From the IMG/VR virus record IMGVR_UViG_3300032212_000038, positions 1 through 42,312 of that record: 42,312 nucleotides of DNA, one strand, 5' to 3'. This DNA is from a virus. Taxonomy: Duplodnaviria; Caudoviricetes. Of this stretch, positions 13,307-41,803 are shown piece after piece. The notes under the pieces were generated by a model that ran no database searches, was not told the DNA's origin, and saw only the letters and a program-made list of their open reading frames with translations. Positions within the stretch are counted from its first letter, which is position 1. Each line of letters starts with the position of its first letter. The translations under genes and the position numbers were made by a program.

Positions 13307-13307
13307 C

Positions 13308-22531: not shown

Positions 22532-22540
22532 CGTGTACCC

Positions 22541-22705: not shown

Positions 22706-22706
22706 C

Positions 22707-26034: not shown

Positions 26035-26045
26035 CTATAGTAGTC

Positions 26046-27125: not shown

Positions 27126-27173
27126 TTAGACAACAAAAAAAGCAAAAAGTTCAATTTATTTTTAAATTATTTT
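27126..27173 (-). promoter_or_regulatory. sigmaE/AlgU-type promoter P1 with UP element, facing the structural arm
   Basis: Minus strand AAAATAATTTAAAAATAAATT-GAACTT-N16-TCTAA. Confidence 0.75.
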
Positions 27174-27300
27174 GCTTCACCTACGGTTAAGACTACCAGA
27201 AGGAACAGAAGGACAGTAGGTAAGAGGGTTTGGATGGGTAGGAATAACAGATTTCTTTAAGCATTAAATAATAACAGAGATCTTTCAAGATTATCAATGA

Positions 27301-27313
27301 AATCAATAAGTTA
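27301..27313 (+). promoter_or_regulatory. IHF consensus site
   Basis: AATCAATAAGTTA matches WATCAANNNNTTR. Confidence 0.6.
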
Positions 27314-27457
27314 CCTACCCTATCTATATAGTCTATATAGTCTTATTTAATACTATTTATTCCTATCCCCCTCCTTTTTATATTCCAAAATCACGTTTTT
27401 TGTGGCTGAGGGTCATAATCAATAAAATCAAAGAAATCCTAGGCCCTCCCCCCTATC

Positions 27458-27476
27458 GATAATGATTCTCATTCGC
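27458..27476. promoter_or_regulatory. Fur box-like site
   Basis: GATAATGATTCTCATTCGC; 15/19 identity to GATAATGATAATCATTATC. Confidence 0.6.
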
Positions 27477-27491
27477 ATTTATCGCAGAATA

Positions 27492-27507
27492 TGGCACAAT
27501 ACTTGCA
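27492..27507 (+). promoter_or_regulatory. sigma54 -24/-12 element
   Basis: TGGCAC-AATAC-TTGCA, a perfect consensus match. Confidence 0.7.
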
Positions 27508-27513
27508 TAATAT

Positions 27514-27529
27514 AGCAAAAACCATGCCA
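27514..27529 (-). promoter_or_regulatory. sigma54 -24/-12 element (leftward)
   Basis: Minus strand TGGCAT-GGTTT-TTGCT. Confidence 0.65.
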
Positions 27530-27599
27530 GAGAGAGTGTGATTGTCACCATCAATGATACCCCAGACTATAATAGATTCTCTCAATCAATACCCCTGAG

Positions 27600-27615
27600 T
27601 GGCATATACATTGCA
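27600..27615 (+). promoter_or_regulatory. sigma54 -24/-12 element
   Basis: TGGCAT-ATACA-TTGCA. Confidence 0.65.
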
Positions 27616-27621
27616 TAAAGT

Positions 27622-27804
27622 GTCAGATTCTTTTACACCTCAAACCCTGATTCCCTCTATATATCGCTTGAATCGATAGTAATAAACGTCAGGTTATTTT
27701 ACACAATGAACGGTACTAAAACACTGACGGGTGGCTTAAGTTATTGATTCTATTGTAAGACATACGTCTGACTAGGCGATTCTAGGTGTCAGAATACTTT
27801 ACAC
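27622..27804. repeat. Three copies of GTCAG-N6-TTACAC (27622-27638, 27688-27704, 27788-27804), candidate enhancer (UAS) sites
   Basis: GTCAGattcttTTACAC, GTCAGgttattTTACAC, GTCAGaatactTTACAC. Confidence 0.7.
27737..27749 (-). promoter_or_regulatory. IHF consensus site
   Basis: Minus strand AATCAATAACTTA. Confidence 0.6.
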
Positions 27805-27867
27805 TATTGGCTTATTTCTCCCTCTGGCATGGTATTATCAGGCTCTCTGAATAAATAATTCTATATA

Positions 27868-27903
27868 AATCAATGACTTACAAAAACTGGCACGGCGAAT
27901 GCA
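27868..27903 (+). promoter_or_regulatory. IHF site plus sigma54 promoter, predicted start about 27914, facing the early arm
   Basis: AATCAATGACTTA (27868-27880) then TGGCAC-GGCGA-ATGCA (27888-27903). Confidence 0.7.
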
Positions 27904-27911
27904 TTATCTTT

Positions 27912-28395
27912 CGGCAAGACCAGCGGGTTTGTCGTGGCTTTCATAGCTGCCCCTATGCGCTGGCTAGGTTATGGGCTTTTAGTACCTTCTATGGGTATTA
28001 TTAACCACGTGTGACATACGGCTCTATTTACGGGTGTATGGTGTAGCGTGGAGGTGCCAGCATAACTGAAACGGGTAGCGGGTACAGTGGCGCACCTGTA
28101 AGCTAATCTGGCTTAGCGGAACTGATAGGCATAACATAAGTCCTAGGGCAGCCATGCTGTCAGGTGTATTGTTCAATACATCTCTCAATAATTACATACC
28201 ACTAGCAGAGAAGGGATATAGGTTTATCTTAATAGGCGATTATCCGAACACAGCGAATATAACGGCTTACGTGTTCCGATTACCTATTGTTTATTACTAT
28301 TCGCTTATATCCTTATGTGACAGGTAGGGTTTTCCCTTTTCTGTGAATGTGATAACTAGTAGGTATTCAATAGGGAGTATCTACCAATTATCACA
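27912..28395 (+). ncRNA. Candidate large structured RNA or structured early leader
   Basis: No convincing ORF; many nested helices with G-U pairs (see findings); begins at the predicted sigma54 start site. Confidence 0.6.
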
Positions 28396-28417
28396 AACAA
28401 AAAGTGAGGTATTAATC

Positions 28418-28897
28418 ATGCAACAAACAACTACTAAAAACTTCAAATCTCAACTGAATGGTATTATCAAATCAGCTAAGACTCAACGGGATAACGTGCA
28501 AGCTATCATTGTATTCGGCCTGAATCACTATAAAGATCACGGTGACGCAAGTTATCTATCACAGGTTTTAAGTGCCGCAATCGGTGTCAAAAGCCTTCCT
28601 ACGGTAACCTTGAAGGAATACATTAAGGCTCATGCGAATCTGTTATGGAAGAAAGGTAAGGATGGTAAATTCCAGTTTAAGAAAGACGGCACTGACGTCA
28701 AGGTTACTATGCCAACTGTTTCATGGTATGAGTGGGACGGTGGTAAGCATAACAAGGTAACCGTTGATATGGATGTTATGGCGCAAACTAAGGCGCTGCT
28801 TAAGCGTATCCAATCTGGCCTTAAGGATCATAAGGTTAAGGATGAACAAGCGGCTAAGAACGTAGAAGCGGCACTCAAGGTAGTACTGGAGGCTTAA
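28418..28897 (+). CDS. First early protein, hypothetical (probable start 28418, MQQTTTK)
   Basis: GTGAGG RBS before ATG 28418; the upstream in-frame part lies in a long hairpin. Confidence 0.8.
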   Translation: MQQTTTKNFKSQLNGIIKSAKTQRDNVQAIIVFGLNHYKDHGDASYLSQVLSAAIGVKSLPTVTLKEYIKAHANLLWKKGKDGKFQFKKDGTDVKVTMPTVSWYEWDGGKHNKVTVDMDVMAQTKALLKRIQSGLKDHKVKDEQAAKNVEAALKVVLEA

Positions 28898-29130
28898 TGT
28901 CTTCCTTAAAGGCAGGCGATAGGGTAGTTGCTATAGGTGGAACTGTCGCGGATATATTCTATCTGGAGAGTAAAGAGGAGGCTAAACGTCTCCGTTACCT
29001 CTATCCAGACGACTGTCATGTATCTCGTGGCCCTGACCATATTGGTAAGCACGGTCATAAGCTGGTACGTTCTCGTCTACAGCCTAAAGGTACTATGAAT
29101 AGTAGTAGCGAGGTGACAAGTCATGGGTAA
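28897..29130 (+). CDS. Early hypothetical protein
   Basis: GGAGG RBS; TAATG coupling. Confidence 0.65.
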   Translation: MSSLKAGDRVVAIGGTVADIFYLESKEEAKRLRYLYPDDCHVSRGPDHIGKHGHKLVRSRLQPKGTMNSSSEVTSHG

Positions 29131-29230
29131 GTTAAGCTTTACAGACTTCTCAAAAGTAGTAATCGGTACTATTGTATTTACTATAGTAGTAGTTTACCTA
29201 ACAGCCCTAATCATGGGCTATCCTATCTAG
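29123..29230 (+). CDS. 35 aa single-TM peptide; not in the ORF track
   Basis: MGKLSFTDFSKVVIGTIVFTIVVVYLTALIMGYPI; GAGGTG RBS; fills the gap. Confidence 0.6.
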   Translation: MGKLSFTDFSKVVIGTIVFTIVVVYLTALIMGYPI

Positions 29231-29239
29231 GAGAATAAA

Positions 29240-29446
29240 ATGGGTACTCTATACCAGACACATGTCAAAGGTACAGATGATTATGGTAATACCTTTACTT
29301 ATACGAAAGGTTCTCTTACTAGTAGTCGTACAACGGCTGTTAATCGTCTTAAAAATAATAGACTTAAGGGGTATGTTCAGGATATTAACTCGAAAAAGGT
29401 AATATTCCAGAACATGCGTAATGATCTACAAGCGGTGGGGTTATAG
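29240..29446 (+). CDS. Early hypothetical protein
   Basis: AGGAG RBS; 68 aa. Confidence 0.7.
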   Translation: MGTLYQTHVKGTDDYGNTFTYTKGSLTSSRTTAVNRLKNNRLKGYVQDINSKKVIFQNMRNDLQAVGL

Positions 29447-29448
29447 TT

Positions 29449-29574
29449 ATGGTTGAAGAACTGAAAGCAATACTCTCCTTATTAGGAGATATGTCAGAGA
29501 TAGGCGGTTGGGTACTTGCAGGGTTTATACTCTTCAAGGTAACCTTGGAGCAGCTTTTCTTAAGGCTGCTGTAG
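29449..29574 (+). CDS. 41 aa hydrophobic peptide; not in the ORF track
   Basis: MVEELKAILSLLGDMSEIGGWVLAGFILFKVTLEQLFLRLL; fills the gap. Confidence 0.55.
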   Translation: MVEELKAILSLLGDMSEIGGWVLAGFILFKVTLEQLFLRLL

Positions 29575-29608
29575 AAGAAAAAATTGAAAGAGAGAGGGGT
29601 TATTAATT

Positions 29609-29821
29609 ATGAGAGGCTTCAAAGCAAAAACATTACGTCGGTTTGCACGTAGTCGTACAGTGGGTAAAAAGGACGTAGAGTACCGTGAGAAGATCACCCC
29701 TAAGACGGTTACAATGTTTAACACAGACGGCACTACCCGTCAGACAGTCGTGCATAAAAGCACTCGTTATATGGTTCACGACTGTACCCGTAAATATTAC
29801 AAACTGTTAAAAGCTTTATAG
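29609..29821 (+). CDS. Basic early hypothetical protein
   Basis: GAGGGG RBS; K/R-rich, 70 aa. Confidence 0.7.
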   Translation: MRGFKAKTLRRFARSRTVGKKDVEYREKITPKTVTMFNTDGTTRQTVVHKSTRYMVHDCTRKYYKLLKAL

Positions 29822-29831
29822 GAGAGCGATC

Positions 29832-30614
29832 ATGGGAGTAAAGTATGATATTGTAAGTACTGGAGCAGGCGGTACAGAGCATGTACTGCCGAGAGCAGGT
29901 GTCTGTTTTTCCTACCTTAAGTACCAATATGGTAGTGAGCTTGACCAGTTACAGATGAGTTTTAAAGAGATCAGGATGCACTTTATCCGTAACCTTAAAC
30001 GGCCTGAGATTAAAACTATCATGTTAAGGGTGTTAGAGGCGTTCGGTATGGATGAATTTGTTACCTTCAACGAGGAAGGACTAGCAGTAGTATCTGACCG
30101 TCGGCCTAAGGTTGTATTTAAGACTTTATCGATGATGCGTGTATTTGATGTCTACCAATGCGACAGGCTCTTGGTTGTTGAGAGATTGGAAGGTATGGGT
30201 TTTGATACTAAGGTTGCATTCCTCCTAGCTCATTATTTACGTATTAAGAAGGACGCCACACTCGATCGTTCTTTTGACCTCAGTACTTGCGGAGAACATG
30301 GGTGGATAGCTGACGCAAGAGACATGACTATTGCAGGTATACTAGGTGTCGCTTTACATGCTAAGGATGTTTTAACGAAGACAGACCCATGTAGTACTAT
30401 GTCTTTTTCCTATATAGGGGTCGAATCCCTATTCAGAGCGTTTAATGGTACGGGGCGTAAACTACACTGTATTTTAGCGGAGGCTTCCGTCCAATCTCAC
30501 GATGATTGGGGGCCTAGGTATGTTAAAGATAAGGATCTATTCCCTATCCTTTACTCTGTGCAAGAGAAGTATGACGAAGAGGTTAAGCGCCTTAAGGGGG
30601 TAGCCGGTGAGTAA
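29832..30614 (+). CDS. Hypothetical protein
   Basis: AGGAG RBS; 260 aa; precedes the amidoligase cluster. Confidence 0.75.
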   Translation: MGVKYDIVSTGAGGTEHVLPRAGVCFSYLKYQYGSELDQLQMSFKEIRMHFIRNLKRPEIKTIMLRVLEAFGMDEFVTFNEEGLAVVSDRRPKVVFKTLSMMRVFDVYQCDRLLVVERLEGMGFDTKVAFLLAHYLRIKKDATLDRSFDLSTCGEHGWIADARDMTIAGILGVALHAKDVLTKTDPCSTMSFSYIGVESLFRAFNGTGRKLHCILAEASVQSHDDWGPRYVKDKDLFPILYSVQEKYDEEVKRLKGVAGE

Positions 30615-31284
30615 GAGAGACTATACGTTCTTAGTACTTGGAGGTAACCCATACTACCAGCCTTTCTTAGAGTTAGGGTCTGTGGTAGGAGGTTACCCTA
30701 ATATGACTAAGGCTGACTGTATTGTATTCACAGGGGGTAGCGATGTTGACCCTTCTCTATATGGTGAGAGTAAGACAACTAAGGTCTTAGTCACAGATTT
30801 AGACAGAGATCATAAAGAGATGGCTGTTTTTAAATACGCAGTCTCTCATGGTATCCCTATGATTGGTATCTGTCGAGGCGCTCAGTTCTTAAACGTGATG
30901 AACGGTGGTAAGTTAGTACAACATGCTAACGGTCATAGCGTTGACCATAAGATCAGGATACCTACCAGTGTAGATTACCCTGTTAAGGAGTTCGTGGTAA
31001 CATCTACGCATCATCAACTGATAGTGCCTAATATAGAGCGTGGTCATCAACTCTTAGGATATACAGAGGGCATCGCTACTCATTTAGAGGGTGTCCCTTT
31101 CAAGGAGTATACTAAATACAGTAAGAAATACAGTGCTGGTGAGACTATAGCTAAGGAGGCAGAAGTTCTGTGGTATGAGACTACAGGTTCTTTATGTGTC
31201 CAGTATCACCCCGAACAGATGAAGAAGGGTGAGGACGGCTATCAGTACTTTAAACACCTAGTAGAGGAGTATGTAATGTTATGA
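30607..31284 (+). CDS. Class I glutamine amidotransferase-like / peptidase C26 (gamma-glutamyl hydrolase, PuuD-like)
   Basis: FTGGSDVDPSLYG, GICRGAQFLNV (catalytic Cys), STHHQ, VQYHPE. Confidence 0.9.
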   Translation: MSKRDYTFLVLGGNPYYQPFLELGSVVGGYPNMTKADCIVFTGGSDVDPSLYGESKTTKVLVTDLDRDHKEMAVFKYAVSHGIPMIGICRGAQFLNVMNGGKLVQHANGHSVDHKIRIPTSVDYPVKEFVVTSTHHQLIVPNIERGHQLLGYTEGIATHLEGVPFKEYTKYSKKYSAGETIAKEAEVLWYETTGSLCVQYHPEQMKKGEDGYQYFKHLVEEYVML

Positions 31285-31466
31285 AATCTACATATATAGT
31301 ATGCTCTTTCTTAGCGCAGTTTACACTATTAGTACTGGCTGTATTCAGTCCTATATATATCACACCCGGTTGGTATGTATGGACTGTTATATCTTTAATA
31401 CTATTAGCTCTCTCCGGCGGTTCATTGAACTATCAGGTGAGCTTATGGGAACTTGACGAGGAGTAA
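31281..31466 (+). CDS. Small two-TM membrane protein
   Basis: Two hydrophobic segments; ATGA overlap; GAGGAG RBS. Confidence 0.65.
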   Translation: MKSTYIVCSFLAQFTLLVLAVFSPIYITPGWYVWTVISLILLALSGGSLNYQVSLWELDEE

Positions 31467-32247
31467 CTTTATGCTTGGTACAGATACAGAGGTATTTTTA
31501 AAGAATAAAGCAGGGGACTATATCTCCTCTATTGGTCTTATTGGTGGCTCTAAGGATAAGCCTTTAGAGGTTGAGTGTGGTAACTTACAAGAGGATAATG
31601 TATTAGCTGAGTTTGCCATACCTCCTGCTAGTAATAAGGAAGAGTTTATAGGATATATTAATAAGACTTTCGGCATCCTTGAGGCTAAGGTTAAGGAGTA
31701 CGATCTTGAGATTGAAATTAAACCTTCTGCCGTATTCCCTTATGATCAGCTTGAGCACCCTTTGGCTCAGGAGTTTGGATGTGACCCTGACTATAATGCC
31801 TACACTTTAGATGTGAATGAGTCGCCTAAGCATGAGAATGTAGGCGCCCTACGTTCTTGTGGAGGCCACGTACATGTATCCTCCGAGGCTATCGCTAAGG
31901 ATGAGAATAGTCGAGCAGAGTTCGTACGTATCCTTGACTTAGTACTAGGTGTACCATCTGTGGTCATGGACACAGATAAAGAACGTCGTAAGTTATACGG
32001 TAAGGCAGGTGCATATCGTAATAAAGATTACGGTATCGAGTATCGTACCTTATCTAACTTCTGGATTCAAACACAAGAGCATATGTCTTGGTTGTGGGAT
32101 CAAGTCAAGAAAGCTGAGAAGATGTTTGATGAAGGGTTCCGTATTAACTTTGACATAGGCAGTCGTGTTATCGAGTGTATTAATAACGGAGACACTGATA
32201 CCGCTGATGCATTGATACATGAATTTAATCTGGAGGTAGTGTCATGA
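31453..32247 (+). CDS. phiEco32-like COOH-NH2 ligase type 2
   Basis: LGTDTEVFL, QEDNVLAEF, FGCDPDYNAY, GGHVH, RRKLYGKAG, YGIEYRTLSNFW. Confidence 0.88.
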   Translation: MTRSNFMLGTDTEVFLKNKAGDYISSIGLIGGSKDKPLEVECGNLQEDNVLAEFAIPPASNKEEFIGYINKTFGILEAKVKEYDLEIEIKPSAVFPYDQLEHPLAQEFGCDPDYNAYTLDVNESPKHENVGALRSCGGHVHVSSEAIAKDENSRAEFVRILDLVLGVPSVVMDTDKERRKLYGKAGAYRNKDYGIEYRTLSNFWIQTQEHMSWLWDQVKKAEKMFDEGFRINFDIGSRVIECINNGDTDTADALIHEFNLEVVS

Positions 32248-32903
32248 ATTATGGGGAGTATACTATTGACGACCTTAATAGGTACTTACGTAACGGTTTT
32301 GCATTCCTAGATAATGAGCCTGTACTTATACGGAGGGTACGTCAGGGTAGAGACAGTAGAGATAAGGTGGTACCTAAAGTAGGTTACCATATGAAGATGA
32401 GTACTAGTGACGATTGGAACACGGACGACGAACACTCTATACCGCTGGACGACTTGAATATATGTAGTGCTGACATAGGCTGCTACAACTATAAAGGTGG
32501 CGTGGTTTATGTTTCACGTGGAGCTGAGAGACAGTGGAACTTTGCGATAAATAACTCATCCTATTCTGTTACTCAATGTAATAGAGACAACCACCGATCC
32601 CGACTAAACCCTCATATGAGTAGCCCGTCCCTACTTAAGGCTATTATCTCTCCAGAATACTTCGGTATTGATACTGCTATTAATAAGTTAAGAACAGGCA
32701 GCCGTATGACTGTGGCACTTGATAAGGACTTCTGGATTGGTGTAGACCGCTACTCAGAGGATATTATCCTTGGTTATCAGTCAGGTAGAGTCATAGGTTA
32801 TATTAATAGTGATGACATTGTTACAGTCTTTACAGGTTTCGAGTTCCTAAGTGAAAAAGTAGCTAAACTAACACCTATAGGGGGTTTTGAAGATGCAGCT
32901 TAA
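32244..32903 (+). CDS. Hypothetical protein within the amidoligase cluster
   Basis: GGAGG RBS; ATGA overlap; 219 aa. Confidence 0.75.
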   Translation: MNYGEYTIDDLNRYLRNGFAFLDNEPVLIRRVRQGRDSRDKVVPKVGYHMKMSTSDDWNTDDEHSIPLDDLNICSADIGCYNYKGGVVYVSRGAERQWNFAINNSSYSVTQCNRDNHRSRLNPHMSSPSLLKAIISPEYFGIDTAINKLRTGSRMTVALDKDFWIGVDRYSEDIILGYQSGRVIGYINSDDIVTVFTGFEFLSEKVAKLTPIGGFEDAA

Positions 32904-34044
32904 TAAAATAACTGGTATCTCTCCAGATAACAGAACATTCCTACCACACTCTTGTTTTGTATTACCTTATACATTAATAGGTGTAGAGGTAGAGACAGAG
33001 GGTGTGTACTATGACCGCCTAAGTAATCCTACTTACTGGGATGTTAAAGAGGACGGATCATTACGTAGTGGTGCTGAGTTCGTACTAGCTAATCCGCTAG
33101 TGGGTAAAGACTTACACGATTCTCTTGAAATACTGGACGCTTTCTGTTCCAATAACCCTGAGATACACTATACTGTTCGTACCTCAGTCCATGTACATTT
33201 AGATGTTCGTGACTTAGAAGCAGAGCAACTGATGAACCTTCTCGGACTGTACTTGCTCTTTGAGAAAGCTATCTATCGTTATCATAACCATAAGTACAAC
33301 AGAGAGAATAATATCTATTGCTTACCTTTCTTCAATACCAGTAGGCATATTAATGACCTTTCTGTGCTGTCTTATCTAGGAGACCCGTCGATTAGCCAAC
33401 GTGATTTATCTACTACTCTCCGCCACTCACTGTCTCGATTAAATAAATATTATGGCCTGAACGTAGCCTCTTTGTTCCGCTTCGGCTCTTTAGAGTTTAG
33501 ACACATGGAGGGTACTCATAATAAAAATGAGATTATTGAGTGGGTTAATATTATTATGTCTCTTAAGAAGTATGCTTGTTCCTTACAAGGCAACCCTTAC
33601 GAGATGCTACTAGGTGTAAGTAATTCTGGTTACACAACACTTCTCTCTAAGGTATTCTCCGCTGACCTGATAAGTAAGCTGTTCGATTACGGGGATGCAG
33701 AAGAGGACATATATGCTGGTATGCAGCTTTTCCAAGATATTATCCACGGAAATAAGCTCACTACTAGTGCAAGTGTATGGCGCGGAAGGGTAGATCAGAA
33801 GAACCCTGAGTATAAAGAGTCTTCATTATTCAAGAAGAGTGCTAAAGGTAATAAGAAGACTGTAGGTAAGAGTAGAGTTAAGAAGGCTATCAGACGTCGC
33901 CGCCGACTAGATACGCTTAACCCTCCAGAGGATACAGCAGTACCTAGTCCTACTGCTGTTGCTTGGGAAGGCACAGCAGTAGGTACTGATTCAGCTTATA
34001 CAGATCTACAACGAGTACTTAACAATATAACAGGAGAAGATTAA
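32887..34044 (+). CDS. Putative amidoligase (glutamine synthetase/GCS-like fold)
   Basis: IGVEVETE, DGSLR...EFV, SVHVHLD, YGLN...GSLEFRHMEGT. Confidence 0.85.
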   Translation: MKMQLNKITGISPDNRTFLPHSCFVLPYTLIGVEVETEGVYYDRLSNPTYWDVKEDGSLRSGAEFVLANPLVGKDLHDSLEILDAFCSNNPEIHYTVRTSVHVHLDVRDLEAEQLMNLLGLYLLFEKAIYRYHNHKYNRENNIYCLPFFNTSRHINDLSVLSYLGDPSISQRDLSTTLRHSLSRLNKYYGLNVASLFRFGSLEFRHMEGTHNKNEIIEWVNIIMSLKKYACSLQGNPYEMLLGVSNSGYTTLLSKVFSADLISKLFDYGDAEEDIYAGMQLFQDIIHGNKLTTSASVWRGRVDQKNPEYKESSLFKKSAKGNKKTVGKSRVKKAIRRRRRLDTLNPPEDTAVPSPTAVAWEGTAVGTDSAYTDLQRVLNNITGED

Positions 34045-34045
34045 A

Positions 34046-35542
34046 ATGTGTGGAATCGTAGGAGTTATCAGTGACAGTGCAGGTATACAGTCACAGGATA
34101 AAAAGAAGTTTTTAATACAGGCATTACAGGTGGATTCTTTACGAGGAGAGGACTCTACTGGCCTCTTCACAGTTAATGATAAGGGCCACTGTGATATGTT
34201 TAAATCTAACATGACTGGCTGGGATTTTGTACAACATGCGAAAACTCAGAAGATCTTATCCTATGTATACGATAAGCGAGTAATGATCGGTCATAATCGA
34301 TGGGCTACACGTGGGGCTATCAACGCTACCAATGCCCACCCTTTCCATCACGGTAAGATTGTCGGGGTACATAACGGATCTCTTAACAATCATAGAAACT
34401 TACTACCTGACGGTGAGATGTTCGATGTAGATAGTGATGCGGTATTCCATTCGATTAATGAGATCGGTGTCGAGGAGACTGTGACCAAAATGAATGGGGC
34501 TTATGCTATTATCTATTTTGATACAGAAGCTAAGACCCTTAATCTGTTTCGTAATGAAGAACGTCCACTCTTTACAGCTATTGTAACTCATGCAAACAAG
34601 AACGACAACACTATGCTAGTAGCTAGTGAGGCTGGTATGATTGAGTGGTTAGCGGAACGGAACGGACTAACTATCGACACACCTGTATTATTAAAACCTC
34701 ATACATTACTAAGTATTAGTACGGATAAACTTACTGACTTTACTGTATCTGATCTAGGTAAGTATGAGCCTCCTAAGAGTGAGAAAAGTACTGTACGGAA
34801 TTTTGGTGACTACCGTAATACGGACTCTCATGAAACACCTAGTCGTAATAAGAGGGTATCTAAACGCTCAAAAAAGATACTAAACAAGGTAGGTCTAAAG
34901 ATCGGAGACACGTTAGAACTCTATAATACTGGTGCAGCGACCTATAATCATAAAGATTCATTCGGTTATATCGAAGGATCTATGACAGTAGATCCTTGGT
35001 GTGACATCGTAGTTCATAATGTACCTAGGAGTATCATTGAGACAGTTGTTAGAGAAGACATGCCTCTTATCTTCGGTAAGATTAAGATTGCAGTAGACCG
35101 GTCGAACTACCCTATCATCCACTTAGATCCTAAAACTCTTAGCTATAACCTTGATGGAAAGAACATACCACTTAGTGAGCCAAGTAGTAAAGAGGAAGTC
35201 AAGAAAGAGACTAAGAAAGTACTGACTACGGAGGACGTAAGAAGTGCGGTAAAGGATGTACTTCGTGATGTCAATAAGAAGAAGGACAGCACGGAGGGAA
35301 CCCCAGAAAAAAAGCCCATACTGTGTCTCCCGGCTGGGAAGAACAATTCAAATTCCTGCAAAGGCCCGAGAGGCTTCATTAGTCTATACGATTTTCAGAA
35401 GTATGTTCAAGGTGGGTGTGATAACTGCGGTGCTAATATTGACCATAATGATCATGATAATATACGTTGGACTAATAACGGCTTACCTCTTTGCCCTTCT
35501 TGTTCAGAAGAGTTACAAGACTGGGGTTGCGCAGGCTGTTAA
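34046..35542 (+). CDS. Class II (Ntn) glutamine amidotransferase with C-terminal Zn ribbon
   Basis: MCGIVG start, RG.DSTG, GHNRWATRG, NAHPF, HNG, DVDSD; C-terminal CDNC...CPSC. Confidence 0.9.
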   Translation: MCGIVGVISDSAGIQSQDKKKFLIQALQVDSLRGEDSTGLFTVNDKGHCDMFKSNMTGWDFVQHAKTQKILSYVYDKRVMIGHNRWATRGAINATNAHPFHHGKIVGVHNGSLNNHRNLLPDGEMFDVDSDAVFHSINEIGVEETVTKMNGAYAIIYFDTEAKTLNLFRNEERPLFTAIVTHANKNDNTMLVASEAGMIEWLAERNGLTIDTPVLLKPHTLLSISTDKLTDFTVSDLGKYEPPKSEKSTVRNFGDYRNTDSHETPSRNKRVSKRSKKILNKVGLKIGDTLELYNTGAATYNHKDSFGYIEGSMTVDPWCDIVVHNVPRSIIETVVREDMPLIFGKIKIAVDRSNYPIIHLDPKTLSYNLDGKNIPLSEPSSKEEVKKETKKVLTTEDVRSAVKDVLRDVNKKKDSTEGTPEKKPILCLPAGKNNSNSCKGPRGFISLYDFQKYVQGGCDNCGANIDHNDHDNIRWTNNGLPLCPSCSEELQDWGCAGC

Positions 35543-35560
35543 TAAATAGGAGAAGGCAAT

Positions 35561-36331
35561 ATGAAGTTTAAGATATACCCTTATAAGATAGGGAGTGCTA
35601 GTGCGAAAAGTCTAGCAGACGGACTAGACGCTAAGAGAGTACGTGTTGATGGTCAGTACGTACCCTACCGTAACCATGTAGTAATTAACTGGGGTAGTGG
35701 TAAAGAGCCTGAATGGCTACACCGAAATACTACCCAGTACAGGTACCTCAACCGTCATGAAGAAGTTCTACGTGTTGGTAATAAACTCTTATGTTTTAAG
35801 GACTTACAGAGGTGGGGGGTATCTATTCCCCGCTTCACAGAGAGTAAGGAAGAGGCTTCAAGCTGGGGTGTCCCTATAGTCATACGTCATAAGCTACGAG
35901 GACATAGTGGTGATGGTGCTGTTTATACAGAAGATGTAGCTAACCTACCTGACGCTCCTCTATATGTAGAGTATAAGAAGAAGGTAAGAGAATTTCGAGT
36001 CCATGTATTCCGAGAACGTGTTATAGATGTACAGGAGAAGAAGAAACGAAGAGAGGTAGGGAATGATGAAGTTGATTATAAAATACGTAATAAGTATACC
36101 GGTTGGGTTTATTGTAGGGACATTGATGCTCCTCCTCCAAGTATCAGCGATGATTCCATACTTGCTGTATCATGTTGTGGATTGGATTTCGGAGCAGTTG
36201 ATGTCATATGGAATAATCACGAGCAGAAGTCATATATTCTGGAGATCAATACCGCACCGGGACTTGAAGGACAGACACTAACTAATTATGTAGAAGCTTT
36301 TAAGCAGTATGCAGTAGGAGATGAGTTATGA
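35561..36331 (+). CDS. ATP-grasp peptide ligase (RimK/glutathione synthetase-like)
   Basis: INWG, NKL, REFRVHVF, LDFGAVDVIW, LEINTAPGL. Confidence 0.88.
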   Translation: MKFKIYPYKIGSASAKSLADGLDAKRVRVDGQYVPYRNHVVINWGSGKEPEWLHRNTTQYRYLNRHEEVLRVGNKLLCFKDLQRWGVSIPRFTESKEEASSWGVPIVIRHKLRGHSGDGAVYTEDVANLPDAPLYVEYKKKVREFRVHVFRERVIDVQEKKKRREVGNDEVDYKIRNKYTGWVYCRDIDAPPPSISDDSILAVSCCGLDFGAVDVIWNNHEQKSYILEINTAPGLEGQTLTNYVEAFKQYAVGDEL

Positions 36332-36831
36332 GCTATACGGTTAAGACTATCAGAGTTAAAGAAGGACATAAGGCATGGCCGGTTACAGTAGGTCTTACTA
36401 TTCGTACTACTGGCCATTGTTGTGGTATGTCGGAGGCGTCAAATCTCCGTACTGATAATATTAAGAAGGTTGATAGGAAAGGTTTTGTTACGAGTGAAGG
36501 CTATGTTGAAATAGATGAATCTACTAGGGATAGACTTTATAGTAGAGTAGGGCAGATGATATTAGAACATCTTTATCTTTCTAATACAGGGATACTTCTA
36601 TTTTCTGACGCCGTAGGCTTGGGATGGTCAGGTGCTGGAGGTGGTGGTAATCGTAATGGAGGTATCAGCTTCGCTGGGTTTGCTAAAACCTACGGTATCA
36701 GAACGTCTTCAAAGACTAAAAGCCCTAAGACCGGCCACGTTATAGCTCTTTATTCGGTCACCGAGGATGCTCTTAAAGAGAAGCATAAAGAGTTTTGTAA
36801 GTCTTTGAAAGAAAAGAAGAAAGTAAAATAA
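36328..36831 (+). CDS. Hypothetical protein
   Basis: AGGAG RBS; ATGA-type overlap; HCCG motif. Confidence 0.7.
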   Translation: MSYTVKTIRVKEGHKAWPVTVGLTIRTTGHCCGMSEASNLRTDNIKKVDRKGFVTSEGYVEIDESTRDRLYSRVGQMILEHLYLSNTGILLFSDAVGLGWSGAGGGGNRNGGISFAGFAKTYGIRTSSKTKSPKTGHVIALYSVTEDALKEKHKEFCKSLKEKKKVK

Positions 36832-36872
36832 TTTTAAAATAGGTGGAACTTATGGAAAATAATATTGTCCAA
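36825..36872 (+). promoter_or_regulatory. sigmaE/AlgU-type promoter P2 with UP element, upstream of the primase/polymerase module
   Basis: AAAATAATTTTAAAATAGGTG-GAACTT-N16-TCCAA. Confidence 0.72.
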
Positions 36873-37229
36873 GAAACTAAAAAACATGAAGAAGTTAGCC
36901 AGAAAGTATTTGTATATGGTACTTTAAAGAAAGGGTACCCTAACTCCTACTTACTTGAGAACAGTAAACTATTAGGTTCTTTTAAAACCAAGCCGGTGTT
37001 TACTATGTATTCTTTAGGGGCTTTCCCTGCCATCTCTTTAGTAGGTGAGACGTCTATCTCTGGTGAGGTTTACTCCGTGGATGAGGATACGTTCAGTAGG
37101 CTTGACCGACTGGAAGGGTATCCCTCTTTCTATAACCGTGCTAAGATTGATACGGAGTTTGGGGAGGCTTGGGTATACTTCTTAGAGGATCGAGAAGGAG
37201 TAACTAAGGTTGAATCAGGGGAATGGTAA
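36843..37229 (+). CDS. Gamma-glutamyl cyclotransferase (AIG2-like); start may be ATG 36852
   Basis: VFVYGTLK, GEVY.V, LDRLEGYP..Y.R, AWVY. Confidence 0.9.
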   Translation: MELMENNIVQETKKHEEVSQKVFVYGTLKKGYPNSYLLENSKLLGSFKTKPVFTMYSLGAFPAISLVGETSISGEVYSVDEDTFSRLDRLEGYPSFYNRAKIDTEFGEAWVYFLEDREGVTKVESGEW

Positions 37230-37280
37230 TATGAACATAGGAATAGCAGACTTAGGTGAACGCACTTGTAAAGGTGATGT

Positions 37281-37436
37281 ATGATATACTACTTAATAAC
37301 TATCCCTTTATTTATGTACGCTACAGCGTATGCAGCAGTCTCCTTAAACGATGATTGTTTTATCCCTGATGACGGTAATCTGTTTGATAGGGTATGCATT
37401 GTATATGATTATACTGAGGAGTATGATGATGAGTGA
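37281..37436 (+). CDS. 51 aa putative secreted peptide; not in the ORF track
   Basis: MIYYLITIPLFMYATAYA/AVSLNDDCFIPDDGNLFDRVCIVYDYTEEYDDE; AAGGTG RBS; AYA cleavage motif; two Cys. Confidence 0.55.
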   Translation: MIYYLITIPLFMYATAYAAVSLNDDCFIPDDGNLFDRVCIVYDYTEEYDDE

Positions 37437-37632
37437 TGAACAACAGATTGAGATGATACATTGTGAGTACTGTCAAGAGTATGTACCTGTAGATATATCT
37501 ACTAATGAGTGTACTACTGGCTGTAATAACTCTCTATGCCCTTATGATATATATGAGGATAAGAATAGAGAGAAGCCATTAGATTTTAATAGTGAAGAAG
37601 TACGTGAGTATGAGCCTGAGGAGGGTTGCTAA
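37429..37632 (+). CDS. Small acidic Zn-finger-like protein (probable start 37426/37429 rather than 37351)
   Basis: GAGGAG RBS; CEYC...C...C....C. Confidence 0.6.
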   Translation: MSDEQQIEMIHCEYCQEYVPVDISTNECTTGCNNSLCPYDIYEDKNREKPLDFNSEEVREYEPEEGC

Positions 37633-39335
37633 TATTGGGTGTACTTATCGAACATATACCTTGCACTAACTGTCCATCCTCTGACGGACTAGCTGTCTAT
37701 GAAGAAGAGGACGGCACTCATAACGGATACTGTTGGGTATGTAAAGAGTATGAAAGTAATCCGTATAAAGATAATCATAAGGAGCAAGAGCGATTGACAC
37801 AAGTTAAAAGTAAAATGTCACCAGAAGAGGTTAAGTCTGAGATTGAACGTATCTCTGACCTACCCTCCTTAGCTATTCCACACAGGAGCATCTCTAAAGA
37901 TGCTACTGAGAAGTATGGAGTTAAGGTAGAGATTGATAGTAGTAGTGGAGATGTTAAGTACTGGTACTACCCTACCTATACTCAAGGTAAACATACAGGT
38001 TATAAGAAGAAGTATCGTACAGAGAAGGGTGAGAAGAAAAAGTTCTTACATATAGGCTCCGGTAAGGATAAGGACTTCTTTGGTGCTAATGTGTGTGGTA
38101 ATAACGGTAAGATGTTAGTTATTACAGAGGGTGAAGATGATGCCCTTGCTGCTTGGGATATGTTTAAGACTAAAGGTAAGAACTACCGAGTCTGTTCTAT
38201 ACCTGATGGTGCCAATATCGAAGCTGTTAAGAGTAGGATTGAGTGGTTAGAGAGGTTCGATACTATAGTCTTAGCTATCGATCAGGATGAACCCGGTCAG
38301 AAGTTTGTAGAAGATGTTAAGAACTTACTAACTCCCGGCTCAGTTAAGGTTATGTCCTTCTCTGAGAAAGACGCTAACGATATGCTAATGGCAGGCAAGA
38401 CAGACGAGTGGTATTCTTCATTGAATAACTCTACTATTGTTAGACCTGATGGTATTATAAGCGGTGCTGATACTTGGGATAAGATTAATAATAGGGAAGT
38501 GGTTGAGAGTCTACCGTACCCTGATGGCTGGGATACCATTAACAAACAAACATATGGATTACGATTAGGGGAGTTAGATACATGGACTTCTGGCAGCGGT
38601 ATGGGTAAGACTCAGGTACTACGAGAGCTACAATACCATATCCTTAATACTACCGATAGGGGTATAGGTGTTATCGCCTTAGAGGAGCCACTAGAGGACT
38701 CTGTAGAGGCAATGATGAGCCTATATCTTAATAAGCGATACCACTTACCTGATGTCAGAGATACAGTGACAGAGGAGGAGAAGTATGAGGCGTGGTTGGC
38801 AACATCTGGTACTAACCGGCTACATTATTATGACCACTTTGGTTCCGTTGATGACGATTCCCTTGTTTCCAAGATTAAGTTTATGGCTAGGGGTTTGGGC
38901 GTTAAGTACATCTTTCTTGACCATCTGTCTATTGTGGTTTCTGAGTTCGCAGATCAAGGAGGAGAACGAGAACGAATAGATAGTATCATGACTAAGCTTA
39001 AGAAGTTGACTCAAGAGTTAGGTATTTGGATAGGCTTAGTAGTTCACTTACGAAAAGTAGGAGGAGGTGTTAGTTTTGAAGAAGGTGCTATACCGTGCCT
39101 TGATGATCTTCGTGGGTCTGGTAGTATTAAGCAGTTATCTAACTCTGTTTACGCACTTAGCAGAAATCAACAAGCCACAAGTGAAGAAGAAAGAAACACC
39201 TCCCAGTTGCATGTGCTTAAATGTAGATTCACTGGAAGAACAGGAGCGTCCGACTATCTTAAATTCGATGATGAGACTGGACGTATGACTAAGACAGATT
39301 TTGTACCAGCAGAGGAGGAACGTAATGAGTTCTAA
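37626..39335 (+). CDS. Primase-helicase (T7 gp4-like)
   Basis: N-terminal CxxC..CxxC Zn finger; TOPRIM ITEGEDDAL and DQDEPG; Walker A SGSGMGKT; LDHL; LRGSGSIKQLS; LKCRFTG. Confidence 0.95.
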   Translation: MLILGVLIEHIPCTNCPSSDGLAVYEEEDGTHNGYCWVCKEYESNPYKDNHKEQERLTQVKSKMSPEEVKSEIERISDLPSLAIPHRSISKDATEKYGVKVEIDSSSGDVKYWYYPTYTQGKHTGYKKKYRTEKGEKKKFLHIGSGKDKDFFGANVCGNNGKMLVITEGEDDALAAWDMFKTKGKNYRVCSIPDGANIEAVKSRIEWLERFDTIVLAIDQDEPGQKFVEDVKNLLTPGSVKVMSFSEKDANDMLMAGKTDEWYSSLNNSTIVRPDGIISGADTWDKINNREVVESLPYPDGWDTINKQTYGLRLGELDTWTSGSGMGKTQVLRELQYHILNTTDRGIGVIALEEPLEDSVEAMMSLYLNKRYHLPDVRDTVTEEEKYEAWLATSGTNRLHYYDHFGSVDDDSLVSKIKFMARGLGVKYIFLDHLSIVVSEFADQGGERERIDSIMTKLKKLTQELGIWIGLVVHLRKVGGGVSFEEGAIPCLDDLRGSGSIKQLSNSVYALSRNQQATSEEERNTSQLHVLKCRFTGRTGASDYLKFDDETGRMTKTDFVPAEEERNEF

Positions 39336-39834
39336 GATATACTTCATAAGTGATCTACACTTAGGACATAAAAGGATTCTTGAGTTTGGGCAACGTAACC
39401 ACTCTGATATTGAAAATATGCACATCAAGATGGTAGAAGAGTGGAACGAAAAGGTAAGGAAGCAGAAAGATATTGTGTGGGTGTTAGGGGATGTAGCAAT
39501 GGAACCCAAAGCATTAGAGTGGTTAGATTACATGAATGGTCAGAAGAGGTTAATCTTAGGCAACCACGATACTATGGATCTAGGGTTATATAAGAAGTAT
39601 TTCAAGGAGGTTCATGCTTTCAGTAAAGGGTATAAAGGTATGGTGCTTACACACATACCTATCCATCCTAATGAGCTAGATACTAGGTTTAATTGGAATT
39701 GGAACATACATGGACATATACATCATCCAGAAAGGAACAACTTAGGTGATAGGTATTTCAACGTCAATGTAGATATTCTAGGGTATCAACCTATTTGTTT
39801 AGAGGAGTTAAGAGAGAAGCTTCCGGATGTCTAA
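39325..39834 (+). CDS. Calcineurin-like phosphoesterase (probable start 39325)
   Basis: SDLHLGH, LGDV, GNHD, LTHIP, HGHIH; GAGGAGG RBS. Confidence 0.9.
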   Translation: MSSKIYFISDLHLGHKRILEFGQRNHSDIENMHIKMVEEWNEKVRKQKDIVWVLGDVAMEPKALEWLDYMNGQKRLILGNHDTMDLGLYKKYFKEVHAFSKGYKGMVLTHIPIHPNELDTRFNWNWNIHGHIHHPERNNLGDRYFNVNVDILGYQPICLEELREKLPDV

Positions 39835-40294
39835 GCTGGTCTTTGATATAGAAGCAGATGGTTTATATCAAGAAGCTACACGTATCTGGTGCATCGTAAC
39901 AAAAGAACTGGCTACGCCAGAGAATAACTACCAGAGTGAGGTTAAACAATATTATGGAGAGAGTATTGCTGATGGTGTGGATGCTCTTCTTACTACTGAT
40001 ACTATTATCGGTCATAATATTATCAATTACGATATACCATTACTACGTAAACTCGGACATGTATCGTTGGATCATAGGTTTGATACAGTAGATACCTTTA
40101 CCTTATCATCATTACTTAATCCAGATAGAGTAGGAGGCCACGGATTAGATGCATGGGGTCGTAGATTTAAGAGATATAAACCAGCACACGAGGATTGGTC
40201 TCAGTTCTCAGACGCTATGTTACATAGATGTACGGAGGACGTAGGGATTAATTATTTAGTTTATTTAGAGTTGTTAAAAGAACAGGAGGGATAG
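39827..40294 (+). CDS. DNA polymerase A 3'-5' exonuclease domain, encoded as a separate gene
   Basis: ExoI FDIEAD, ExoII GHNIINYD, HGLDAWG, ExoIII RCTEDV; ends in TAG. Confidence 0.9.
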   Translation: MSKLVFDIEADGLYQEATRIWCIVTKELATPENNYQSEVKQYYGESIADGVDALLTTDTIIGHNIINYDIPLLRKLGHVSLDHRFDTVDTFTLSSLLNPDRVGGHGLDAWGRRFKRYKPAHEDWSQFSDAMLHRCTEDVGINYLVYLELLKEQEG

Positions 40295-40295
40295 A

Positions 40296-40460
40296 ATGGG
40301 GAAGGTCTATATTATTACAGACGTGGTAGATGATTTTTCAAGGGCAACTGATACTATGGAGAAAGCAGAAAAGATAAAAGATGAGATGTTTGAAGAGCTC
40401 TTACAGTATGGTTTTAAGAATGAAGGACGTGTATACATAACAACTCTTGAAGTAGAATAG
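40296..40460 (+). CDS. 54 aa hypothetical protein between the two polymerase parts; not in the ORF track
   Basis: MGKVYIITDVVDDFSRATDTMEKAEKIKDEMFEELLQYGFKNEGRVYITTLEVE; AGGAGG RBS; stop overlaps the GTG of the polymerase. Confidence 0.7.
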   Translation: MGKVYIITDVVDDFSRATDTMEKAEKIKDEMFEELLQYGFKNEGRVYITTLEVE

Positions 40461-41803
40461 TGGATTGGTCTCAGGCTATAAAATGTGAGACAGAAGTAGC
40501 GAGGATTATAACCCAACAGGGTATTAATGGTGTCTTATTTGATCTAGAGGGTGCTCACCAATTGATTAATACGATCAGGAGGGAGTCAGAAGAGATCTAC
40601 GATTACGTAAGACCGTACCTACCTTATGTTAAGGACACTAAGAAACGAACCTGTATGAGGCCTTTCAATGTGAAAACTGGAGGGTATTCTAAGAAGGTTG
40701 AGAAGCTCCTAGGTGATGATGAATTACCAATATCAGGAGCCTTCACTTATATAGCTCCTAGCTTAGGTAGTAGGGAGTATCTGGTTAATGTACTGATTGA
40801 TCTAGGGTGGAAACCTGACCAATTCACAGAGACAGGTAGGCCTAAACTTACTCATCAGGGAGCGCCTGTTGAGTCCTTATCCACGTTTGACAATGATCTA
40901 GGGCAACGTATAGGTAGATGGTATATCATCAACCATAGAAGGAGCCAAGTCCAAGGGTGGATAAATAAACTACGTCCAGATGGAAGACTGTCCGCACTGG
41001 CTGTACCTATCGGCACTAATACTAATAGGATGAGACACTCCATCGTAGTCAATGTACCTAAAGCTGCAGACCATGTACCCTATGGTCATGAGATGAGAGC
41101 ATTATTTATAGTTCCAGAAGGTTATCGGATGATCGGTCATGATGCCTCTGGCTTAGAACTAAGGATGCTCGCTCACTACCTCAATGATCCAGAGTATACA
41201 AGAGTTGTAACAGAAGGTGATCCTCATTCTCTCCATCAAGAGATGGCAGGGCTACCTACTAGGGATGACGCTAAGACGTTTATATATGCCTTCTTATATG
41301 GAGCAGGTGATACTAAACTGGGATCTATTATAGCTCCACTGGCATCACAACAAGAACAGGCAGCTCACGGTGCAAGACTAAGAGCTACCTTCCTTAACGC
41401 TAATCCTAAACTTAAGGAACTAGTTGATCGTGTTAAGAAAGCCTCTCGTACTGGCTACTTAATAGGGTTAGATGGCCGTAAGATATGGATGCGTAAGGAT
41501 AAGAGAGGGCGTATCATGGAGCATAAGGCTCTTAATACACTACTTCAATCGGCAGGAGCCGTAGTCATGAAATACTCTATGATATTCTTAGACAAATGGG
41601 TACGTAAGGAAGGCTTAGATGTTAAGAAGGTTATAGATATGCACGATGAAGCACAAGCAGAGGTGAAAAATAATGAAAAAATAATTGAACTTTATTGTCA
41701 TCTTGCTGTCCAATCTATAAGACAAGCAGAATTATTCTTAGAACTGAACTGCCCCCTTGATGCTGAGGCTAAGGTAGGTCATAATTGGAGTGAAACACAT
41801 TAA
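40460..41803 (+). CDS. polA: Family A DNA polymerase, polymerase domain (T7 gp5-like, Tyr762 type)
   Basis: Motif A DASGLELRMLAHY, motif B RDDAKTFIYAFLYGAG, LNTLLQSAGA, motif C MHDE. Confidence 0.95.
   Translation: MDWSQAIKCETEVARIITQQGINGVLFDLEGAHQLINTIRRESEEIYDYVRPYLPYVKDTKKRTCMRPFNVKTGGYSKKVEKLLGDDELPISGAFTYIAPSLGSREYLVNVLIDLGWKPDQFTETGRPKLTHQGAPVESLSTFDNDLGQRIGRWYIINHRRSQVQGWINKLRPDGRLSALAVPIGTNTNRMRHSIVVNVPKAADHVPYGHEMRALFIVPEGYRMIGHDASGLELRMLAHYLNDPEYTRVVTEGDPHSLHQEMAGLPTRDDAKTFIYAFLYGAGDTKLGSIIAPLASQQEQAAHGARLRATFLNANPKLKELVDRVKKASRTGYLIGLDGRKIWMRKDKRGRIMEHKALNTLLQSAGAVVMKYSMIFLDKWVRKEGLDVKKVIDMHDEAQAEVKNNEKIIELYCHLAVQSIRQAELFLELNCPLDAEAKVGHNWSETH
41666..41713 (+). promoter_or_regulatory. 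sigmaE/AlgU-type promoter P3 with UP element, inside the polymerase 3' end, upstream of the SSB-to-RNR module
   Basis: AAAAATAATGAAAAAATAATT-GAACTT-N16-TCCAA. Confidence 0.72.

Follow-up and report, generated by a model that had tools for sequence, protein, structure and literature searches.

The window, the whole 42,312-nucleotide stretch of viral DNA analysed here, holds a complete podophage genome of 42,081 bp, the ends of the window overlapping by 231 bases. Particle genes form a late arm on the minus strand, and an early arm and two replication blocks lie on the plus strand; because the ends overlap, the second block resumes at positions 1–7052. Three promoter-like sites, P1, P2 and P3, are distributed over this layout as follows.

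7049..26989, minus strand: late arm behind P1, starting with two small ORFs, a putative terS, accessory genes and terL, and continuing with portal, scaffold, capsid, adaptor, nozzle, putative ejection proteins and fibre
9531..12356, minus strand: putative ejection protein of 941 aa
27126..27173, minus strand: P1, sigmaE-type promoter at the head of the late (particle) arm; A/T UP tracts 27173-27153, -35 GAACTT 27152-27147, -10 GTCTAA 27131-27126, predicted start 27120-27119
27492..27903: four sigma54-type -24/-12 sites, at 27492 (plus), 27529 (minus), 27600 (plus) and 27888 (plus)
28343..37229, plus strand: early arm upstream of P2, containing a gamma-glutamyl module (amidotransferases, COOH-NH2 ligase, amidoligase, ATP-grasp, cyclotransferase)
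36825..36872, plus strand: P2, sigmaE-type promoter upstream of primase/helicase; -35 at 36846-36851, after the ribosome-binding site of the gamma-glutamyl cyclotransferase gene and before its ATG, -10 at 36867-36872, in codons 6-7 of that gene, predicted start 36878-36879
37281..41803, plus strand: first replication block behind P2, with two small ORFs, primase/helicase, metallophosphoesterase and a split family A DNA polymerase
41666..41713, plus strand: P3, sigmaE-type promoter within the DNA polymerase 3' end; -35 at 41687-41692 (codons Glu-Leu), -10 at 41708-41713 (codons Val-Gln), predicted start 41719-41720
41803..42312, plus strand: opening part of the second replication block, downstream of P3, with a 72-aa ORF and a gp2.5-like SSB

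P1, P2 and P3 are conserved sigmaE-type promoter sequences. Each reads GAACTT-N15-GTCYAA where the initial annotation had placed it, and each is directed into a functional module as proposed there, P1 into the particle genes and P2 and P3 into the replication blocks. P3 would serve SSB, exonuclease, resolvase, RNR, lysin and putative holin genes across the circular junction. The annotation had also described P2 and P3 as kept inside coding sequence, which holds for P3, inside the DNA polymerase, and only in part for P2. Since the -10 box of P2 lies inside the cyclotransferase gene, its transcript would begin within that gene and serve the genes downstream.

According to PMC1312014, E. coli sigmaE promoters combine consensus boxes with a 16-nt spacer and A/T upstream elements, and the phage sites fit this pattern, as claimed. 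They share with the E. coli regulon a GGAACTTTT-like -35, a GGTCAAAA-like -10, the 16 nt from GGAACTT to TCAAA and A/T tracts at the subsites of the RNA polymerase alpha subunits (parts of PMC1312014 and PMC3326320); they differ in being predicted promoters of a lytic phage, ahead of replication and particle genes, with GTCYAA as the -10. All three sites have GAACTT, preceded by the leading G of GGAACTT in P2 only and by T in P1 and P3, and all three have 16 nt between GAACTT and TCYAA. The -10 boxes (GTCTAA in P1, GTCCAA in P2 and P3) are each one base off GTCAAA. An A sits 6 nt past the -10 in every case, and a sigmaE transcript would be expected to begin at a purine 5-6 nt past this box. 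Alpha subsites are centred at -43 and -53 (PMC3326320, in part), and across 58 phage sites A peaks at -54 to -51 and at -43 to -40. By A/T-tract counts, the tracts upstream of P1–P3 are among the highest 0.3% genome-wide. Of the common upstream tract described initially, the A/T richness is found at all three sites, and the AAAATAAT tract of P3 is displaced by one base.

Scored with a matrix whose training set was 49 sites of other genomes, the three sites come out highest in the genome, as expected from the initial annotation (P1 43.0, P2 33.9 and P3 33.1 bits; next site 8.0), and the highest score in 100 Markov-simulated genomes was 20.6 bits; the core score is partly circular, because the training sites were gathered with a pattern derived from P1–P3. 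The same matrix finds no sigmaE-type site ahead of the early arm. A looser pattern, GAACTT N14-17 TCYRA, matches the window four times where 0.37 matches would be expected, and 1 of 100 shuffles also reached four. The fourth match (16588-16612, minus strand, spacer 14, within the adaptor gene) looks like chance. Across IMG/VR stretches the N15 spacing occurs 73 times, against 22, 19, 18 and 11 for N16 to N19, and it is found in 71 of 83 sites from 23 fetched genomes, most survey genomes having been found with the pattern built from P1–P3. The -10 is GTCTAA in 45 of the 58 phage sites, against GTCAAA in E. coli.

All three positions recur in distant phages, namely upstream of the late operon, upstream of primase and within the 3' end of the DNA polymerase gene, so the motif conservation anticipated in relatives was found. 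P1 is the longest invariant block in a three-way alignment with genomes G003 and G004, and the G004 counterpart of P2 overlaps the cyclotransferase ATG in the same way. In-frame boxes occur in 5 of 27 distinct polymerases (window included), in the helix after motif C; the four other genomes had been brought into the survey by other matches. In all five the valine of the -10 is encoded by GTC, a rare codon (7-13% of Val codons). Cultured phages QDWS535 and Slicky01 also carry the site. In QDWS535 (OK172329) it spans 48815-48841, the first late gene follows after 53 bases, and no sigma was detected; in Slicky01 (OQ508958) it spans 18193-18219, and that phage encodes an ECF sigma of its own. Single sites in two further genomes were set aside: that of G001 lies inside primase and scores 14.9 bits, and that of G008, which has a sporulation-type sigma, is likely chance. 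A BLAST search with P1 against cultured phages gave weak AT-rich matches only, and the two followed up, Colwellia 9A and a Vibrio phage, contain no exact site.

This conservation bears on whether the motif might be something other than a sigmaE-type promoter. Read in reverse, P1 gives TAGACA-N17-TTCAAT and could be a sigma70 promoter of the opposite strand, but the reversed -10 has no A in its second position and varies between the sites, P2 having TTCCAC. A packaging signal would suit P1, whose non-coding stretch probably also holds the physical genome ends, but not P2 and P3, which are internal. A by-product of protein sequence is suggested by Val-Gln at the same helix position in three motif-less polymerases (L015, L018, L019); against this, the rare codons at the boxes do not vary (for each genome, joint synonymous probability 0.003-0.012) and homologous sites in relatives are mostly intergenic. 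We regard these explanations, taken together, as very improbable. Equally improbable is the proposal that the sites are decoys that bind sigmaE holoenzyme and blunt the envelope-stress response, the genes being expressed by read-through or from sigma70 promoters. A near-perfect consensus would bind tightly, and some relatives carry antisense copies, but the genome has just three copies, each directed into an operon, the 58 sites that could be scored divide into 50 sense and 8 antisense (crude ORF calls), and sigma70-like matches are no commoner than in shuffles (7 vs 10.2; 25 vs 32.0). The promoter reading is supported by consensus match, by positional and codon-level conservation and by orientation.

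The site class is neither obligatory nor uniform in its use. G007, a complete relative with a terminase 65% identical, has no exact site and no detected sigma, which shows that the class is dispensable in the lineage. G003 and G004 carry an additional site antisense to early genes, and most of the sites in G017, G023 and G034 are on the other arm from the particle genes, close to where it starts; the class is therefore not always middle or late.

The initial annotation had recognised no phage sigma factor or RNA polymerase, and this held in Pfam, PHROGs, NCBIfam and whole-genome family searches. A TIGR02937 search of the window returned nothing at E<=1; as a control, it recovered the known sigmas of PA11, CW02, CVT22 and phiEco32, and that of RIO-1 weakly. 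Among the 16 motif-bearing records at least 90% complete, a sigma went undetected in 12 (the window and 11 others). The slots of the sigma gene in relatives are filled here by the phosphoesterase and the 72-aa ORF. Some motif-bearing phages encode their own RpoE-like sigma, either free or within an ejection protein. The stand-alone sigma of G031 is 42% identical to a bacterial RpoE, and two relatives of G031, G016 (complete) and G046 (81% complete), have no sigma and keep the same two sites. Over its C-terminal 600 residues the 941-aa protein has larger homologues in G023, G017 and G014; these contain an embedded RpoE-like sigma, and the window protein does not; a sigma domain was found in none of 17 scanned homologues (of 18). 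A motif in the 941-aa protein resembling sigma region 4 aligns with a non-sigma part of the G023 protein and was discarded.

Relatives that encode ECF sigmas also raise the prospect that the promoters are real and read by an unrecognised, highly divergent phage sigma or sigma-like factor. Our own phage-sigma profile, built with RIO-1 left out, did not place the RIO-1 sigma among the top matches listed, so searches of this kind can overlook a phage sigma that has diverged very far, and several early ORFs (260, 184 and 167 aa) have no assigned function. Yet the four libraries gave no match, the 260- and 184-aa genes are unmatched in G004 (99% complete, three sites), the 167-aa gene has a match in G004 only, and no uncharacterised window protein is common to more than 3 of 22 other genomes. 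It is also unlikely that a sigma so far diverged would preserve every base of the cellular consensus, and phiEco32 gp36 recognises another motif, tAATGTATAtA (PMC4281155, in part), which P1–P3 themselves lack. We consider such a reader improbable. Of the candidates for a divergent sigma, the 167-aa ORF gave a low-confidence single-sequence fold (pLDDT 34), and its homologue search returned only itself; for the 260-aa ORF, sigma-like neighbours were absent in Atlas (best feature score 0.78). The sites being kept in distant relatives and in a phage with no detected sigma, the phage likely borrows a host stress sigma.

Which host sigma would be borrowed depends on how specific the consensus is. 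An acidobacterial bin contains six exact matches; the four examined all lie just upstream of genes, those behind the motif are of envelope type and include TonB-C-like and ExbD-like ones (read from sequence), and a motif variant precedes an ECF gene. The consensus therefore does not single out proteobacterial RpoE, and together with the preference of phage sites for GTCTAA this leaves a small chance that the reader is a different host ECF sigma sharing this consensus, perhaps in a host that is not a proteobacterium, rather than RpoE/AlgU. Against it, the cultured carriers infect Alcaligenes and Pseudoalteromonas, the gamma-glutamyl module matches mainly gammaproteobacterial phages, and the RpoE model is the best match of three of five captured phage sigmas (second or fourth in the others). 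Capsid relatives in archaeal, acidobacterial and Methylophaga bins gave no guide to the host, as they are probably mis-binned phage contigs; the fetched stretches of these bins lack the motif.

A different set of sites, absent from the initial annotation, lies between P1 and the early genes. The sigma54 consensus is TGGCAC-N5-TTGC with GG-N10-GC spacing, and both features are present in the four early-region sites, which we take to be sigma54-type. The pattern is found four times against 0.11 expected and nowhere else in the genome; in 167 kb upstream of sigmaE-type sites it occurs 29 times, against 0 for the reversed pattern. The site at 27888 (plus strand) is directed into the early genes, directly downstream of a presumed IHF-type site (27868-27880). 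The IHF pattern shows no genome-wide enrichment (4 vs 2.16 expected) and is clustered, with three of four matches in 27301-27880. A 19-nt repeat occurs three times (27620, 27686 and 27786) and, by eye, is absent from the G003 and G004 intergenic text. No sigma54 activator was identified, and a single Fur-like box was dismissed, as 17 of 100 shuffles also contain one.

We infer from these comparisons, with a probability of roughly 0.7, that transcription of the middle and late genes relies on a host sigma of the RpoE type; that the reader is a host sigma, that it is RpoE rather than another ECF sigma, and that timing is middle to late are all part of this inference. Host core RNA polymerase carrying the envelope-stress sigma would read the sites for the replication blocks and particle genes. 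Sigma region 4 would bind GAACTT and region 2 would open GTCYAA, RNA beginning 5-6 bases beyond, and the A-tracts near -53 and -43 may act as UP elements for the alpha subunits. UP elements and near-consensus cores could make the promoters strong enough at low sigmaE levels. The early arm would be transcribed from other host promoters, possibly sigma54, and infection may raise free sigmaE, which would thereby act as a timer. No trigger gene for such a rise was found: an aromatic-X-Phe C-terminus, as in a trigger peptide, ends none of the window proteins and, across 23 genomes, a single one of 1,338 crudely called ORFs. An extension that we think unlikely is that the whole programme runs on host alternative sigmas, sigma54 early and then sigmaE, timed by envelope damage from injection or from early gamma-glutamyl enzymes, in a broad podophage guild based on the sigmaE promoter, some lineages of which took up the reader themselves, either in the form of a free rpoE-like gene or as a domain of an injected virion protein. 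SigmaE would there cover replication, particle and lysis genes.

Among the closest known systems, phiEco32/SU10, PA11, CW02, CVT22 and RIO-1 are likewise podophages with a gamma-glutamyl module and no RNA polymerase. Their sigma is phage-encoded in phiEco32, PA11, CW02, CVT22 and RIO-1, whereas the window phage has sites and no detected sigma; the exact GAACTT-N15-GTCHAA site occurs in none of these five. In phiEco32 the ECF sigma acts at six promoters, three of them middle and three late (PMC4281155, in part), and by analogy a host sigma likely takes the role of gp36 here. Pseudomonas phage YuA is also a lytic phage relying on a host alternative sigma, but with a single sigma54-like promoter plus a phage-specific motif (PMC10914365, whose main text mentions neither AlgU nor RpoE). 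LUZ24-like phages, examined through Clew-1, have similar gene order, a gamma-glutamyl module and no detected sigma; LUZ24 promoters are described as sigma70-like, unlike the sites here, and Clew-1 has no exact site (at most 4.2 bits). Our literature search, mostly outside subscription papers, found no published case in which host sigmaE/AlgU drives genes of a lytic phage.

A phage that encodes no RNA polymerase must have some switch by which expression passes from early to later genes. If the main reading is true, the host stress sigma would provide that switch at no gene cost and tie phage output to envelope state, and rseA, degS or mucA genotype would be predicted to alter burst size. QDWS535 and Slicky01, being in culture, make the question of the host sigma directly testable. 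The same promoter class, found with no sigma, with a captured rpoE-like gene or with an ejection-protein sigma, would form a series for sigma acquisition.

The window holds a whole, circularly permuted phage genome whose first 231 bases are repeated at its end with two differences (unit length 42,081 bp; G+C 41.5%). Its genes lie in two arms, and three sites with sigmaE (RpoE)-type promoter boxes, GAACTT-N15-GTCYAA, are placed among them at the 48-mer coordinates of the initial annotation, which proved correct in the sequence.

Arms and sigmaE-type sites of the window
28343 round to 7052, plus strand: arm with early genes, gamma-glutamyl module, primase/helicase, split family A polymerase, SSB, exonuclease, RNR and lysis genes
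26989 to 7049, minus strand: arm with terminase, portal, capsid, tail and putative ejection genes
27173-27126, minus strand: P1, heading the late (particle) arm
36825-36872, plus strand: P2, ahead of primase/helicase
41666-41713, plus strand: P3, inside the DNA polymerase 3' end

The phage has no close cultured relative. Among cultured phages, the best portal matches reach only 22–27%, and no relatives of the 941-aa putative ejection protein were found; the gamma-glutamyl module is common to LUZ24-like phages, phiEco32-like phages and Zobellviridae (~40% identity). Between the putative terS and terL, four genes (109, 516, 172 and 424 aa; 22707-26375, minus) form an insert missing from G003 and G004, relatives whose terminases are 88–89% identical to the window's; of these, the 424-aa product carries an IPT/TIG domain, and the one of 516 aa resembles a fibre or spike rich in repeats. 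A 295-aa lysin-like ORF and a 142-aa membrane protein, encoded in different frames, share ~420 bases at the P3 arm's end, outside the late arm (6158-7052, plus); both are kept in G004.

A matrix built on 49 sites in other genomes, with four close relatives left out, returned P1, P2 and P3 as the top matches anticipated for them, at 43.0, 33.9 and 33.1 bits, with the next window site at 8.0 and the best score over 100 simulated genomes at 20.6; because the training sites were collected using a pattern derived from the window's own, these scores show the absence of a fourth site more than they prove the three. A matrix built from any two of the sites recovers the remaining one at 24–39 bits, with unrelated sites at no more than 11.

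For E. coli sigmaE promoters, Rhodius and colleagues describe a -35 element of GGAACTTTT, a -10 element of (T/C)GGTCAAAA, a 16-nt spacer, a discriminator of 5/6 nt and A/T-rich upstream elements (PMC1312014); a later paper on UP elements places the alpha subsites at -43 and -53 and lists 18 promoters as active at basal sigmaE (PMC3326320). With a 6-nt discriminator assumed, the 58 distinct phage sites taken from other genomes show peaks of A at -54..-51 and -43..-40, the proximal one partly forced by the search pattern and the distal one not, and a T follows the -35 box in 47 of them. The upstream tracts of P1, P2 and P3 are within the top 0.3% of the window's 23-mers. The predicted promoters P1–P3 belong to a real, conserved class.

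The motif is kept in relatives, a check suggested from the single sequence. In the intergenic alignment with G003 and G004, no invariant block is longer than P1; P2 is kept in G004, where an ATG also directly follows GAACTT; and G005 has a site ~4 kb upstream of terS. Across IMG/VR, 73 stretches carry the N15 pattern, a number that includes repeats of the same contig, versus 22, 19, 18 and 11 at four wrong spacings (70 in total, by our own count), so that about a quarter of the N15 matches are chance. Sites occur within a few genes before primase or helicase in ten of 22 fetched genomes (G004, G012, G016, G024, G029, G031, G038, G039, G043 and G046), ahead of a terminase gene or where the opposite arm begins in ten (G003, G004, G005, G016, G017, G024, G029, G031, G038 and G039), and inside the polymerase 3' end in five (G005, G021, G024, G029 and G043). 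In the window, G043, G005, G021 and G029, the polymerase boxes are in frame, in the helix that follows motif C, and read GAA CTT and GTC CAA or GTC AAA; GTC makes up 7–13% of Val codons there, and the joint synonymous probability of the boxes is 0.003–0.012 per genome. The remaining 22 of 27 distinct polymerases have no boxes at that helix. Selection on the DNA sequence is best supported by these in-frame rare-codon boxes. G003 (L134, 5611 plus) and G004 (L193, 11032 plus) have an extra, antisense sigmaE-type site, absent from the window, between two early genes; such a site could silence early genes later in infection.

No sigma factor or RNA polymerase had been recognisable from the sequence alone, and database searches agree: none was found among the 58 window ORFs in PHROGs or Pfam or among eight candidates in NCBIfam, and six-frame window searches with PF04542, TIGR02937 and PF08281 found no sigma. 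TIGR02937 did detect ECF genes in 7 of 13 GenBank phages, including phiEco32 and RIO-1 (E 0.002). The sigma gene lies between primase/helicase and polymerase in PA11, CW02, CVT22 and RIO-1 and after the polymerase in G001 and G002; the corresponding window slots are filled by a metallophosphoesterase and a 72-aa ORF. Our own profile of 14 phage sigmas, searched unfiltered, gave a window maximum of 5.6 bits; of three left-out controls, Slicky01 (20.9) and phiEco32 (13.8) were recovered, and RIO-1 was not among the matches listed. Among the 16 motif-bearing records with a completeness of 90% or more, 12 gave no PF04542 match. A single phage-encoded reader of the motif is unlikely, since some motif-bearing genomes have one gene in common with the window (G016, G017, G023 and G046, for example) or none (G034 and G036), and no uncharacterised window protein is present in more than three of the 22 fetched genomes.

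Several motif-bearing phages have captured an RpoE-like sigma. G031 encodes a stand-alone 187-aa sigma in its early arm (L174, 1198-1758 minus). RpoE is the NCBIfam model that this protein matches best (E 3e-56, under the curated cut-off), and its identity to the RpoE of a Methylophaga bin is 42%. G016 (complete) and G046 (81% complete), with 17–18 genes in common with G031, lack this sigma, yet keep the same two exact sites. In G014 (L181), G017 (L180), G023 (L177) and G034 (L179), a full sigma (region 2 and region 4) is embedded in a 1,371–1,790-aa ORF, flanked by glycine-rich hydrophobic segments of a putative ejection protein; the C-terminal halves of the first three are homologues of the window's 941-aa protein (for G023, 25% and E 1e-48). 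Each of G017, G023 and G034 has five to seven sites scoring over 13 bits, mostly on the arm opposite the particle genes. The G014 protein also has a PcfJ-like domain, and G052 (L202, L336) is a further case of an embedded sigma. By co-occurrence, use of the motif in phages with a captured sigma ties it to the RpoE-like class, and its retention in sigma-less kin points to the host copy as reader.

We consider it likely that a host RpoE-type sigma reads the promoters. Against this stand a complete terminase relative, G007, with neither an exact site nor a detected sigma, and an acidobacterial bin with the same motif (G050; L342-L345, L348), where exact GAACTT-N15-GTCTAA sites directly precede envelope-type genes and a variant precedes an ECF sigma and anti-sigma-like pair. 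A search for a trigger peptide among the window proteins found none. The gamma-glutamyl enzymes, which may alter the cell wall, occur in only about half of motif-bearing genomes and also in phages without the motif.

Three of the 13 GenBank phage records contain one exact site each. In Alcaligenes phage QDWS535, where the TIGR02937 search found no sigma, it lies 53 bases before the gene opening the late arm; in Pseudoalteromonas phage Slicky01, which has its own ECF gene, the upstream tract is nearly identical to that of P1; the third is Klebsiella phage Asterion. No exact site was found in PA11, CW02, CVT22, RIO-1, VpV262, phiEco32 or Clew-1.

The window scan found no sigmaE-type site ahead of the early arm, and sigma70-like matches in the early region are at chance level (7 versus 10.2 expected). 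Four sigma54-type -24/-12 matches occur, all within 27492-27903, with 0.11 expected; the sigma54, IHF and Fur labels are given by resemblance to the general consensus sequences.

Other candidate sites between P1 and the early genes
27301; 27737 (minus); 27868: three IHF-type sites
27458-27473: Fur-like box

The same intergenic stretch has five sigma54-type matches in G004 and seven in G021, and G003, G018, G029, L125 and L126 have one or two near P1, facing away from the late promoter. The 2 kb upstream of 95 sigmaE-type sites contain 29 such matches, in 16 of the 95 stretches and with two loci counted twice, versus 0 in the reversed control. Because orientation is mixed in the window, G004 and G021, some may be binding sites rather than promoters. 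The intergenic cluster would suit a proteobacterial host without proving one. Ahead of the last sigma54-type site, a 19-nt imperfect dyad repeat occurs three times (27620-27804), with distances of 66 and 100 bases from copy to copy; these may be activator sites. An imperfect hairpin of 21 bp at 28348-28395 immediately precedes the first long early gene and may be a site of RNA processing.

There are known precedents both for a lytic phage that draws on an alternative host sigma and for ECF sigmas encoded by phages. Lytic Pseudomonas phage YuA employs host sigma54 (PMC10914365), whereas the window's motif is sigmaE-type, and phiEco32 encodes its ECF sigma (PMC4281155), whereas the window has sites and no sigma was found. 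Our literature search found no publication on host sigmaE driving lytic phage genes. What is new is the three-position promoter architecture with codon-level support, the comparison of G031 with G016 and G046 (sigma present versus absent, same sites), the sigma54-type site cluster, and two cultured test systems, QDWS535 and Slicky01.
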